64,000 nt of DNA, taken from sequence record NC_135732.1; one strand, given 5' to 3'. The translations under genes were made by a program, and so were the position numbers. The stretch comes from a phage. How positions within the stretch are numbered: position 1 is the first letter of the stretch; every line of letters starts with the position of its first letter. The notes below the pieces were generated by a model, which had not been told where the DNA came from, ran no database searches, and worked only from the letters and a program-made list of their open reading frames with translations. Below are positions 29,884 through 34,314 of this stretch, in pieces.

Positions 29884-30167
29884 TCTGGATATCCTATGCT
29901 GATGGCACCATGCTGTATACTGCAGGTACCAGATATGAAGTTCAGGAGAACGATAAAAAATTTATCGTAAAAACATTTGACAAGGACGACAACCTTTTGC
30001 TAGAATTGACTTACAAAGTTGGAGAGGTATCCAATATCCAGTTGGATTGTGGTCATAAAGATAATCCACTCAAAAAACCTGGAGTAGGTAAGGCTTCAGA
30101 AGAACGTCTGTCTCGTATTGCAGAAAGCGTTTCTCCCCAAAAATCTAAGAAGAGGACTAGAAAATGA
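29880..30167 (+). CDS. hypothetical protein
   Basis: AAGGAGG RBS. Confidence 0.5.
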   Translation: MIWISYADGTMLYTAGTRYEVQENDKKFIVKTFDKDDNLLLELTYKVGEVSNIQLDCGHKDNPLKKPGVGKASEERLSRIAESVSPQKSKKRTRK

Positions 30168-30957: not shown

Positions 30958-31239
30958 ATGAAAAAGATTAACAGTAGTGAAGTAGAGTTTAAACTTGTCG
31001 GAAAAGGCACTTACTGGGAAGTTCGTCAAAAGGTATATTTGTTCGGTCTTATTCCCTACTGGTCTAAATTCTACTGGGGAGCTAACGAGTGGGGAAGATA
31101 CGCCACCAAATCAATGGCACTTGTTGGTATAGCAGAGTACATTGCAGCCCGAGATAGGGTTGGAACCACTTATTACTACACTGCTGACGATATTCGTAAC
31201 AGTGTTTACGTCCCACAACCGCCTGAGGGAGACCGTTGA
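30958..31239 (+). CDS. hypothetical protein
   Basis: GAGGGAG RBS then ATG; track start was TTG. Confidence 0.5.
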   Translation: MKKINSSEVEFKLVGKGTYWEVRQKVYLFGLIPYWSKFYWGANEWGRYATKSMALVGIAEYIAARDRVGTTYYYTADDIRNSVYVPQPPEGDR

Positions 31240-31463
31240 TGAAAGTTAAAGTTTTAGATTCAAGCTTCTATATTGGTCAGGAGCCCTTAGTGGGGAAAGT
31301 GTTTACCGCTATCCCTAACGAAGATTATCCTGACCTTTTAAAAATAAAAGGTGCAGATCTTATTGCCGCTGGTGCATCTCAGGACTGCTTTGACAGCCAG
31401 TGGACCTACAACTTTGCCCTTGGTGAGGATGTAGAGATAGTGGAGGACGAGAATGAAGGTTAA
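31239..31463 (+). CDS. small acidic protein, MKVK...VEIVEE paralog family
   Basis: GAGGGAGA RBS; KGADLIAAGASQD and DVEIVEDE tail. Confidence 0.55.
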   Translation: MKVKVLDSSFYIGQEPLVGKVFTAIPNEDYPDLLKIKGADLIAAGASQDCFDSQWTYNFALGEDVEIVEDENEG

Positions 31464-31707
31464 AATTCTTGATTCTAACGTCTACTTGGGACAATCCTTC
31501 CTGAAGGGAAAGGTTGTACCTGCGGTGTACTTTGAATGGTTGCCTGACAACGATCCTGTGCGTCAGAAGCATTCCACTGTATCACACGGTGTGGTATTTA
31601 TTCGCGGGTTAGATCTGATCAAAGCGGGTGTCCCCAAGTATTACTTTGGGGAAGAACATTACTATGCCTTCGGTGTAGGAACAGACGTAGAGATTGTAGA
31701 GCGGTAG
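31453..31707 (+). CDS. small acidic protein, MKVK...VEIVEE paralog family
   Basis: GGAGGA RBS; MKVKILDSNVYLGQ and DVEIVER tail. Confidence 0.55.
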   Translation: MKVKILDSNVYLGQSFLKGKVVPAVYFEWLPDNDPVRQKHSTVSHGVVFIRGLDLIKAGVPKYYFGEEHYYAFGVGTDVEIVER

Positions 31708-31708
31708 T

Positions 31709-32107
31709 ATGAAGAACAAGCTTTTCAAAGTAACAATGAAAATTCGCGGAGCTTGGAGCGTAAAGCAAGGGCGTATTCCGGAATTTGAGAAAGACTTCTA
31801 CGTAGTCTCCACCTCGGAGGAGGCTGCATGCTGGCAGGCTGGCTATGCCTATGCAAGAACCTGGTACGAAGGATACCAGACTGGGGGCTATGACGGAGAA
31901 ATTATCAGCAAGGGTGTAGAAGAAATTAATGTGTTGACAAGTGAAAAAGTTTTTGTTATAGTGCATCCAGATTCCAGAGTGAAGCATTACTGGAATGCCA
32001 GAACAAAAACTTGGACACCGTTTGCAGATTCTGCTACGCCACTTTTAAACCAGAAAGCTCTTGACTCTGCCCCAAGTTATGGGGTTGTTGAAGAAAAGCT
32101 AAACTGA
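31709..32107 (+). CDS. hypothetical protein (paralog of 33919 ORF)
   Basis: VIVHPDSRVKHYWNARTKTWTPF resembles VMRHPHSNIAYYWDVLNNEWTPDL in 33919 ORF. Confidence 0.5.
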   Translation: MKNKLFKVTMKIRGAWSVKQGRIPEFEKDFYVVSTSEEAACWQAGYAYARTWYEGYQTGGYDGEIISKGVEEINVLTSEKVFVIVHPDSRVKHYWNARTKTWTPFADSATPLLNQKALDSAPSYGVVEEKLN

Positions 32108-32124: not shown

Positions 32125-32415
32125 ATGATGGATTTAATTCTAAATATTGATAACGCAGAAGAGTTTAAAGACGATGGTGTAACAAGCATGGACAAACCCT
32201 GCTCTGCTAAGGTTGACTCAAAATGGACCTACAAGTTTGACGGAGAGATCTTCGCAAATGATGAGAAGGTTGTAGATGCTGCAGCCATTTTAAACGCTCT
32301 AGGGTACGACCCTGTGAATTCTTTGATCAAGGATCCTGTTGAGTTTGCAGAGTATGTTCGAAAAATGGCAGATCTTGCTGTGGATATTTTAAAAACTATC
32401 GACAACAAGCTGTAA
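32125..32415 (+). CDS. hypothetical protein
   Basis: GTGAGGTG RBS. Confidence 0.5.
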   Translation: MMDLILNIDNAEEFKDDGVTSMDKPCSAKVDSKWTYKFDGEIFANDEKVVDAAAILNALGYDPVNSLIKDPVEFAEYVRKMADLAVDILKTIDNKL

Positions 32416-32421
32416 AAACTG

Positions 32422-32450
32422 TTGACACAACGCTTCAGATTTAGTATCAT
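32422..32450 (+). promoter_or_regulatory. sigma70-like promoter
   Basis: TTGACA, 17-nt spacer, TATCAT. Confidence 0.5.
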
Positions 32451-32499
32451 TGTTTTCAAAGAGAGATAGTTATTCCCTCTTCCTTAAAAGGAACACGTT

Positions 32500-32820
32500 A
32501 TGCAAATTGAAATCACTGGCAACAATGTAGAAATCACAGAAGGTATGGTATCTTTTATTTCCCGCAAAATGTCCAAGCTGGAGCGTTTACATCCCTCTGT
32601 TAACTATGCACGTGTGAGTGTAAAAGTTGAAAATGATCACCAGGAAGTTATGGCGTTCATTTTTGACAATTCTGGAAAAGAAGTTATTGCCAAGGCTAAA
32701 GGCAGTGATGCTTACGAGGCAACTGACCGTATGGTAGATGTTGCAGCACGTCAGCTGGCTAAATGCGGTGGAAAGAAAGGTAAGGGGAAAGGCAAAGTAA
32801 AGATTGACTTTGGAGAATGA
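32500..32820 (+). CDS. hpf: ribosome hibernation promoting factor homolog (HPF/RaiA family)
   Basis: MQIEITGNNVEITEGM...VSVKVEN...ARQLAK matches E. coli HPF as recalled; AAAGGAAC RBS. Confidence 0.7.
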   Translation: MQIEITGNNVEITEGMVSFISRKMSKLERLHPSVNYARVSVKVENDHQEVMAFIFDNSGKEVIAKAKGSDAYEATDRMVDVAARQLAKCGGKKGKGKGKVKIDFGE

Positions 32821-32957
32821 GGTGCTACAATGGGTGTGATTAAGAAATTAGTCCCAAATGTAGAGATTGCATGCTTTGAAATTATGTTTGCAATCGCAGT
32901 TGTAGTTAATGTGTTAGGTTACGGCTATTAATATCAAATAATTGAGGAGACCTCTAA

Positions 32958-33227
32958 ATGAAAATTAAATTATTCAAAACTGAGCTGGCAGACAAAAATT
33001 GTGGTCTGGTTGAAGGCATGATTGTTGAAGCACAACCAGTGGACTATATGAAGGTGGTTCGTGATGCCCTGGGTGAAGGTTTTGATCTGATGGAGCCAGC
33101 TCTGCGAGAAGATGTTATCGAGATGGCTAAAAAGCACACACCTGAGGGTTTGGTGGTGTTTGTTGCACCTGGTAATGGAGAAGAGTTGATTGTAACTCCT
33201 GATGTGTATGAGATTGTAGAGGAATAA
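32958..33227 (+). CDS. small acidic protein (VEIVEE-tail family)
   Basis: GAGGAGA RBS; C-terminal DVYEIVEE. Confidence 0.5.
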   Translation: MKIKLFKTELADKNCGLVEGMIVEAQPVDYMKVVRDALGEGFDLMEPALREDVIEMAKKHTPEGLVVFVAPGNGEELIVTPDVYEIVEE

Positions 33228-33318: not shown

Positions 33319-33582
33319 ATGATTGTTTATTTTAAAACTTCAGGTGGATACCCTGATTCTCAAAGCTTGATCGGAAAAACGTGCACAGCATACTCACCTC
33401 TTGATGAGGAGGTAAGTGATATTCTACGAAATATGTATCGGATTGACCCCCAAGAAGCTTTTGATCAAAACCTTGTATTTGTCAAGGGCTCAGACATGAA
33501 GTCTTTGGGAGCATTCCCTGAAGCAGATGATGATGCCGTTTATTCGTTCATGACTCCTTTTGAAGCTATGGTTGTTGGGTGA
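33319..33582 (+). CDS. small acidic protein (family-like)
   Basis: GAGGTGA RBS; LVFVKGSDMKSLGAF resembles family core. Confidence 0.5.
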   Translation: MIVYFKTSGGYPDSQSLIGKTCTAYSPLDEEVSDILRNMYRIDPQEAFDQNLVFVKGSDMKSLGAFPEADDDAVYSFMTPFEAMVVG

Positions 33583-33586
33583 TAAT

Positions 33587-33919
33587 ATGAAAGTACGCTT
33601 TATTGGTGAAACAATTCCTGTGCATCTCCGGTCTCCTGAGGATTCTGCAGATCTTGCATCTCAAAAGGCGAGAGGTTATGATAAGAAAGTAACCTCAACC
33701 GATGTAGTGCTTGAGGCTACTAGTCTACCTGACCCTGCTGCATTCTTTAATCATTATGGGTACTATTTCAGCAATCTGATGAATATCGGTGAGCTTGTGT
33801 TTATTAGTGGTGGAGAAATTGTTAGCAAGCTTGGCGGAGATCCGGATGTCTTTCATGAAACCTGTCCTTTTGCATTTGTGGTGGGTTCAGATGTGGAAGT
33901 TATTGAGGAGGTGCGGTAA
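33587..33919 (+). CDS. small acidic protein (VEIVEE-tail family)
   Basis: ATG 33587 (MKVRFIG); C-terminal DVEVIEEVR. Confidence 0.5.
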   Translation: MKVRFIGETIPVHLRSPEDSADLASQKARGYDKKVTSTDVVLEATSLPDPAAFFNHYGYYFSNLMNIGELVFISGGEIVSKLGGDPDVFHETCPFAFVVGSDVEVIEEVR

Positions 33920-34314
33920 TGGTAAGCCTATACCGTGTTGAGTATAGCTCAGATACTGTATACAACGTAAGAAGCAAAGATCGCAGCGACAGAGTGCAAG
34001 AAATGTACGTTCTTGCCGACAGTCCGTTATCTGCAGCGTTCAAGGCAGGGGCTCTTGCATCTCGTTGGAAATTTGAAGGTGGATCTTTCTATGAAGAAAC
34101 CCTTGAAGATTCTGTTGTTATTTCTTCTGTAGAGGTTTCAGATGACTACGAAGGGAAAAAGTTCGTAATGCGGCACCCACACAGCAATATTGCGTACTAC
34201 TGGGATGTTCTGAACAACGAGTGGACCCCAGATCTTCAGAAGGCTACTGTGCTAACACCGTTTTTGGCAGATAAGTTCCCACCAGAAGGTAATTTATCTG
34301 CACTGTTTCAGTAA
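33919..34314 (+). CDS. hypothetical protein (paralog of 31709 ORF)
   Basis: GAGGAGG RBS; shared HP..YW...WTP motif. Confidence 0.5.
   Translation: MVSLYRVEYSSDTVYNVRSKDRSDRVQEMYVLADSPLSAAFKAGALASRWKFEGGSFYEETLEDSVVISSVEVSDDYEGKKFVMRHPHSNIAYYWDVLNNEWTPDLQKATVLTPFLADKFPPEGNLSALFQ

Follow-up and report, generated by a model that had tools for sequence, protein, structure and literature searches.

A diverged, phage-lineage-specific short HPF/YfiA family protein with a partly remodelled rRNA-contact surface in rV5-like vequintaviruses

The window analyzed here, a stretch of 64,000 nucleotides from the phage record NC_135732.1, comes from a Vequintavirus (Vequintavirinae), i.e., an rV5-like myovirus of E. 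coli. The 3 kb around the gene of interest are 99.7% identical to Escherichia phage naswa and 95–99% identical to dozens of rV5-like phages. The gene itself (hereafter HPF) is a forward-strand ORF (32500..32820, +) that runs from an ATG start through 106 codons to a TGA stop (32818..32820, +). It is preceded by the Shine–Dalgarno sequence AAGGAA (32488..32493, +), read from the sequence and kept in relatives, and its GGA core is separated from the ATG by 7 nt. The ORF divides into a part coding for the core domain (32500..32766, +), as supported by PF02482, TIGR00741, an AlphaFold2 (AF2) model and Foldseek, and a part coding for a polybasic Gly-rich C-terminal tail formed by residues 90–106, GGKKGKGKGKVKIDFGE (32767..32817, +), which is predicted to be disordered and varies in length among isolates. 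The gene belongs to an extended series of small, closely spaced same-strand ORFs spanning about 20.6–38.9 kb; for rV5, a block of 88 mainly small ORFs and predicted host-type promoters are reported in the genome paper (PMC3606486). An earlier note on this DNA, made from the letters alone, had placed the gene in an array of small early genes. The array of small same-strand genes stands, whereas its "early" expression is something that we infer from promoter type and gene layout; the literature searched yielded no vequintavirus transcriptome.

Directly past the TAA (32413..32415) of the preceding gene, a consensus scan recovered a sigma70-type promoter-like site, TTGACA-17 nt-TATCAT (32422..32450, +), that matches 11 of 12 consensus positions. 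The sigma70-like promoter that had been read at 32422 is thus confirmed as a conserved site: its block AAACTGTTGACA is unchanged in five vequintavirus relatives and in a divergent vequintavirus-like lineage (L002), its −35 element is kept in a phage lineage whose HPF is 64% identical (see below), and the rV5 GenBank record labels it "Sigma70-type promoter; P144". As a class, promoter-like sites across the region are barely above expectation, with 20 observed versus 15.9 ± 3.6 in shuffled sequence. Further 11/12 sites occur along the gene block at 29977, 31934 and 34333. The 3′ end of the HPF gene itself contains a second promoter-like site (32804..32831, +), TTGACT-16-TACAAT, preceded by a TG. 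Between the upstream promoter-like site and the ribosome-binding site is a small 5′-leader hairpin, AAGAGrG ... CCCTCTT (32460..32480, +), of doubtful significance. In rV5, Aya and a further relative (L007) it forms a perfect 7-bp stem (AAGAGGG-N7-CCCTCTT), in the window and in YN3 it carries one A mismatch and is hence weak in the window, and it is absent from L002. As the leader folds no better than shuffled sequence (z = −0.5), we make no claim of a riboswitch or attenuator. Rfam and tRNA scans across the whole window came back empty.

Immediately downstream of HPF lies a tiny hydrophobic ORF of 33 aa (phrog_15151; 32830..32931, +). Vequintavirus records annotate this ORF, and it is conserved among them, but L002 lacks it and has a gap of only 84 nt between HPF and the following gene. 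HPF is flanked by two phrog_7379 paralogues of 132 and 131 aa (31709..32107 and 33919..34314, both +), of which the divergent lineage L002 has one copy only. Two or three members of phrog_5009 (31236..31463, 31453..31707 and 33319..33582, all +), which often end in a (D)VEIVE-like motif, are also found in this neighborhood. In naswa, magaca, nomo, navn, SophiaRose and other records, the label "sigma 54 modulation factor" occurs twice, once on the 89-aa ORF at 32958..33227 (+). We considered this ORF as a second HPF paralogue and rejected it, as it has no Pfam match and matches only phrog_11868 (function unknown). Phage APCEc02 carries the label on this downstream gene (APCEc02_082) and lists its actual HPF gene (APCEc02_083) as hypothetical; the label on 32958..33227 is a misannotation that has been propagated from APCEc02.

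A profile search against the S30AE/HPF family, which had been proposed earlier as a check, returned matches above the curated cut-offs of both models concerned. PF02482 (Ribosomal_S30AE) aligns positions 1–83 of its 88-position profile with residues 3–89 of the protein (E = 4.2e-15; 56.7 bits versus a cut-off of 23.7), and TIGR00741 (HPF/YfiA family) scores 56.8 bits versus a cut-off of 40.9. In the Pfam scan, PF02482 was the sole significant match, with PF18444 (RRM_9) also listed far under its cut-off. The best sequence matches in the PDB are the E. coli HPF chains 2rql, 4v8h and 6h4n (E ~4e-15 to 2e-14), and tblastn with E. coli HPF gives 44.3% identity across 87 aa. The likeness to E. coli HPF that had been noticed at both ends of the protein is real and far beyond chance: the quoted motifs are present and fall in register in the HMMER alignment (MQIEITGNNVEITE = MQLNITGNNVEITE, VSVKVEN = VVLKVEK and ARQLAK = ARQLTK, phage sequence first). 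At a finer level, neither the short-HPF equivalog (NF007780/PRK10470; 65.2 bits versus 125) nor the YfiA/RaiA equivalog (NF007654/PRK10324; 22.8 bits versus 158) is reached; it is therefore a member of the family without being the equivalog of either host protein. Judged by these sequence scores, it is clearly closer to HPF than to RaiA. The dimerisation domain that follows a linker at the C-terminus of long HPFs is not present in this protein of 106 aa, of which residues 92–104 are predicted to be disordered.

The predicted fold points the same way. The AF2 model, computed from an alignment of 89 sequences, has a mean pLDDT of 83.7, with values of about 84–94 per 10-residue block in the core and below 50 in tail residues 92–104. 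Its secondary structure (strand 2–8, helix 14–30, strands 34–44, 47–56 and 61–68, helix 71–90) superposes on solved HPF structures, the outcome that structure prediction had been proposed to look for. All 35 of the 35 Foldseek matches in the PDB at E ≤ 1e-3 are HPF, YfiA or pY chains, and the best of them, 4hei (V. cholerae HPF), 2rql and 6h4n, align with rmsd values of 1.0–1.6 Å and target-normalised TM-scores (TMt) of 0.86–0.94. Profile, sequence and fold thus make membership in the HPF/YfiA (RaiA, Ribosomal_S30AE) family practically certain and bear out the earlier note's reading of a phage-encoded HPF/RaiA homologue.

The gene is already known, being annotated in over 100 GenBank/RefSeq phage records and having been tested in 2019. 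Most annotated records name it "sigma 54 modulation factor", "ribosome hibernation (promoting) factor" or "ribosome-associated translation inhibitor RaiA". An exact or at least 93% identical protein is encoded in 117 of the 118 matching records of the phage collection, the 118th being a mis-filed Salmonella contig with 42% identity. When E. coli HPF was used as the query against 50,697 phage records, 129 were recovered at E ≤ 0.01; about 118 of these are vequintaviruses, and most of the remainder are short contigs of probable bacterial origin. Eighteen MG0656xx records ("Campylobacter phage C12, C14, C2, A138 ...") are about 97% identical to rV5-like phages across the region, and their Campylobacter jejuni host labels look doubtful, possibly owing to contamination or mislabelling.

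The gene might alternatively be a decaying passenger (moron) devoid of phage function, a reading with which the frameshifted tails of Murica and APCEc02 and the lack of a known phenotype would agree. Murica has a −1 shift in the tail, and APCEc02 has an indel that shifts the frame within the same run of purines; both truncate the KIDFGE end. These frameshifts might represent real variation or, as both fall in a homopolymer-rich repeat, sequencing errors. Of the 118 records, about 116 carry the gene intact, vequintavirus orthologues show dN/dS of 0.03–0.05 at dS up to 0.74, i.e., strong purifying selection, and its position is unchanged in a lineage whose synonymous divergence is saturated. The selection analysis effectively refutes this reading, and we regard it as extremely improbable.

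A word-indexed protein search returned only the phage clade, and an exhaustive phmmer search was needed to reach cellular relatives. Among 1.84 billion cluster representatives, it gave a single match below 1e-10, a protein (P0004) with 64–66% identity; the next best match is 44% identical, and the remainder are typical cellular HPFs with 25–40% identity. The contigs that encode P0004 are phage-sized (124–137 kb) and stem from metagenomes and a single E. coli assembly. On them, the P0004 gene occupies the same place in a colinear array of small genes, and the proteins of this array are 28–85% identical to their counterparts in the window. The HPF gene therefore predates the split of the two phage lineages. 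The divergent vequintavirus-like lineage (L002–L005) shows about 65–87% DNA identity across the blastn-aligned segments of the region and was not found at the HPF locus in the 2025 phage collection; one of its members (L005) is the 136,793-bp contig AATLQU010000010.1 of the E. coli assembly GCA_012894635.1. A scan of 185,579 species-representative bacterial genomes in GTDB recovered just two loci, both Firmicutes HPFs with 34–37% identity, and thus no close relative; an IMG/VR scan likewise yielded two loci only. Neither a donor lineage nor prophage copies of the phage HPF were found in the IMG/VR and GTDB genome scans. Taken together, the selection, the retention in every sequenced relative and the synteny in the 64%-identical lineage indicate that the phage uses the gene. 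It is the Vequintavirus orthologue of rV5 ORF144 and a diverged, phage-lineage-specific short member of the HPF/YfiA family.

We then asked which features of the family the phage protein has kept by aligning it with 109 cellular representatives and counting conserved columns. It retains 35 of the 42 physico-chemically conserved columns, against a cellular mean of 37.1, which puts it at about the 14th percentile. Six of nine conserved basic columns are kept; about 7% of the 109 cellular representatives keep fewer and about 13% as few or fewer. The family's basic 16S rRNA contacts on helices 1 and 2 comprise E. coli R17, K23, K26, K80, R83, K87, K89 and K91; R17, K80 and K89 are the ones missing from the phage protein. 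Phage positions past residue 57 correspond to the E. coli HPF position plus one, such that E. coli R83 is phage R84. The retained residues are K23, K26, R29, E44, G59, D70, Y72, D76, D80, R84, Q85, L86, K88 and K92, and the changes are R17→V and, in E. coli HPF numbering, D/E51→M, M70→A, I74→T, K80→V, L81→A and K89→G. The 64%-identical lineage departs from the family at each of these changed positions as well; being common to both phage lineages, the changes are therefore old and fixed.

A comparable split emerges from the contacts seen by cryo-EM in Gram-negative HPF/YfiA (10.1101/2025.10.07.680626), which in E. coli HPF numbering comprise K26, Q29, T53, H55, E60, H62, D75, K80, R83, K87, K89, K91 and K93. 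The phage protein retains K26, E60, D75, R83, which contacts m4Cm1402 (10.1101/2025.10.07.680626), K87 and K91. It has lost the β-sheet contacts T53 and H55, both replaced by Phe in the two phage lineages alike, and K80 and K89, both replaced by non-basic residues. Basic residues have been gained at R22, R29, R38, K60, K65 and K67 and in the tail, and these additions in core and tail raise the pI to 9.0 versus 6.5 for E. coli HPF. Fixed lineage-specific substitutions under strong purifying selection are compatible with a changed function. Such a change might have taken the fold off the ribosome altogether, with a basic dsRBD-like surface serving to bind another RNA, a host protein or a nucleotide immune signal. 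The seven changed conserved positions fixed in both lineages and the now aromatic exposed β-sheet residues (F53 and F55) would suit such a neofunctionalised protein. Phage early regions are also rich in counter-defense genes. A published parallel is the anti-CBASS sponge Acb4, a phage cyclic-nucleotide sponge reported as structurally similar to V. cholerae HPF 4HEI (PMC11722364). An Acb4-like sponge is not supported by Foldseek, as the Acb4 structure 9E4W is not among the best 50 PDB matches. The topology of Acb4 is different, with three strands and five helices in a tetramer, and all Foldseek matches at E ≤ 1e-3 are HPF, YfiA or pY chains. Direct full-length homology to genuine HPFs and the key 16S-contact Arg and Lys residues kept under purifying selection further argue against departure from the ribosome, which we consider unlikely even with the negative ribosome pull-down of the rV5 protein described below counted in its favor (Mizuno 2019).

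The Lys/Gly-rich tail that the earlier note had described is present as CGGKKGKGKGKVKIDFGE. Eighteen residues follow the RQLxK motif in the phage protein versus eight in E. coli HPF. The tail of YfiA, about 26 residues long in a sequence that is one residue short and serves only as illustration, is unlike it in composition. The phage tail is encoded by the repeat AAAGGTAAGGGGAAAGGCAAAGTAAAG, in which the number of GK repeats differs among isolates: YN3 has two residues fewer and L007 shows another repeat pattern. It usually ends in KIDFGE; the 64%-identical lineage has a different tail that ends in a similar KWDY, such that the two share a terminal K-hydrophobic-D-aromatic motif (KIDF / KWDY). 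The C-terminal peptide VKIDFGE of the rV5 protein was detected by mass spectrometry in lysate (Mizuno 2019, PMC6375957).

Experimental evidence comes from Mizuno et al. (2019, Nat Commun 10:752; PMC6375957), who counted the HPFs of the rV5 group as ribosomal proteins encoded by viruses, grouped them with gammaproteobacterial sequences and suggested that they might compete with host factors and thereby prevent ribosome dimerisation. The rV5 protein was expressed from pBAD in E. coli and detected in the lysate; mass spectrometry found none of its peptides in 70S or 100S ribosomes that had been washed at high salt, and its expression caused no discernible change in 100S formation (PMC6375957). 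The caveats attached to these results are growth phase, true loss of binding, dissociation in the salt wash and the absence of infection (PMC6375957). We found no later functional study in the literature searched. The polysome-profile check that had been proposed earlier was thus already run on a 97%-identical orthologue, with the protein stably made and the profiles unaffected (Mizuno 2019). Accordingly, the functional half of the earlier reading, that the product could shut down or protect host ribosomes during takeover, is unproven, partly contradicted by the rV5 ribosome profiles, and speculation as it stands.

A general switch-off of translation by the phage HPF is unlikely. In its specific form, the protein would block initiation on free ribosomes early in infection and so shut off host translation, for which the host-type promoter of the gene and its place in a putatively early gene block might speak. 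However, its binding mode cannot separate host from phage mRNAs, the phage needs the same ribosomes, and E. coli cells expressing the rV5 protein had normal 70S profiles, with no toxicity reported (Mizuno 2019). We therefore judge host shut-off to be very improbable.

The same experiments also bear on a subtler possibility, namely that the protein is an anti-hibernation competitor and hence a variant of ribosome binding. It would fill the HPF/YfiA site and, through its tail, the path of RMF, without supporting 100S formation and with easy dissociation. Host hibernation, whether in stationary phase, starvation or infection stress, would thereby be prevented or reversed and phage mRNAs translated. 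Such a role was explicitly proposed by Mizuno 2019 (PMC6375957), who saw no promotion of 100S formation by the rV5 protein. It would accord with the longer tail of the phage protein (18 residues versus 8 in HPF), given that the tail of YfiA heads towards the RMF site, and with the loss of K80 and K89, which fits weaker, reversible binding. Yet a protein occupying the A and P sites itself blocks translation, such that any benefit needs fast exchange, and ribosome association was not detected at all (Mizuno 2019). Moreover, the Lys/Gly tail is unlike that of YfiA and is frameshift-truncated in two deposited genomes. We see this competitor role as rather unlikely.

The role that we find most likely is that of a weak-binding plug of the decoding site. 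The host RNA polymerase would transcribe the gene soon after infection, and the product would enter the tRNA/mRNA channel of the 30S subunit on non-translating ribosomes, as HPF and YfiA do. Binding would be mediated by the retained K23, K26, R29, D76, R84 (E. coli R83) and K88, and the flexible polybasic tail might add non-specific rRNA contacts towards the path taken by RMF and the YfiA tail. The loss of R17, K80 and K89 probably makes the phage protein a weaker binder than host HPF and its binding more sensitive to salt, and such a lower, salt-sensitive affinity would reconcile the kept contact residues with the negative salt-wash result. Ribosomes freed from host mRNAs could then be kept as protected, non-dimerised and quickly reusable 70S particles, in competition with the host hibernation factors RMF, HPF and YfiA and with the decoding centre and the 3′ end of 16S rRNA shielded from nucleases. 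Against ribosome binding stand the negative ribosome association of the rV5 protein, the three lost basic positions, the replacement of T53 and H55 by Phe and the missed equivalog cut-offs. On balance, the explanation as a whole, i.e., a diverged phage HPF that binds the ribosome and protects idle ribosomes, strikes us as somewhat better than an even bet. More tentatively, the gene might be a specialised counter-measure: either a fast-exchanging plug of the decoding site, with its tail in the path of RMF and the YfiA tail, that blocks host-imposed hibernation or shields the decoding centre and 3′ end of 16S rRNA from ribosome-directed abortive-infection or stress nucleases during takeover, or a protein that has left the ribosome for a new RNA or nucleotide ligand. 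This is a possible reading, though one to which we give a minor share of our confidence.

Phage genes that directly touch the ribosome are rare and bear on the means by which viruses obtain translation capacity in starved or defending hosts. The vequintavirus HPF is the best-conserved HPF homologue of cultivated phages and belongs to a tractable group of E. coli phages, with rV5-like phages in the BASEL collection; it therefore offers a good experimental handle. To the published account, our analysis adds, at residue level, the partial remodelling of the rRNA-contact surface under strong purifying selection, a phage HPF lineage without a close cellular relative and the propagated false label "sigma 54 modulation factor" of the neighboring gene. 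The remaining interest lies in the physiological role of the phage HPF in infection.

Among known proteins, the closest counterpart is the orthologue encoded by rV5 ORF144 (gp139; YP_002003641, ABI79209), which is 97% identical and shares the position, the promoter P144, the fold and the K/G tail. The window protein differs from it by an extra Asn (ITGNNVEITE, as in E. coli HPF, versus ITGNVEITE), which accounts for its length of 106 versus 105 aa, and by a few substitutions (R22/H22 and V34/A34). More distant are the HPF-like proteins of jumbo phages, namely K4F6Q6 of Cronobacter phage GAP32 and L7TII8 of Escherichia phage PBECO4, which also display the S30AE fold and come from large virulent myoviruses. 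These are only 18–26% identical to the window protein and were not found by tblastn at E ≤ 1e-5. As GAP32 is placed elsewhere in the published tree (PMC6375957), the jumbo-phage HPFs are independent acquisitions.

Of the host proteins, E. coli short HPF (YhbH; 2RQL, 4V8H and 6H4N) has the same fold (rmsd 1.1–1.6 Å) and about 43–44% identity, with a nearly identical N-terminal β1 motif and with K23, K26, E60, D75, R83, K87 and K91 kept in the phage protein. In contrast, the phage protein extends 10 residues further at its C-terminus, which is rich in Gly and Lys where E. coli HPF has the helical KHKDKLKQH, its gene lies behind a phage sigma70-type promoter-like site rather than in the rpoN operon, and neither 100S promotion nor stable ribosome association was detected for the rV5 orthologue. 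E. coli YfiA/RaiA (protein Y; 1N3G and 4V8I) consists of the same domain and likewise bears a C-terminal extension past the second helix, which in YfiA points to the RMF site and counteracts 100S formation. The RefSeq name of the phage protein is "RaiA", yet its match to YfiA is much weaker than that to HPF (PDB E ~0.02). The two extensions also differ in kind: that of the phage protein is polybasic and Gly-rich, whereas that of YfiA is an Arg/Ala stretch followed by an acidic end.
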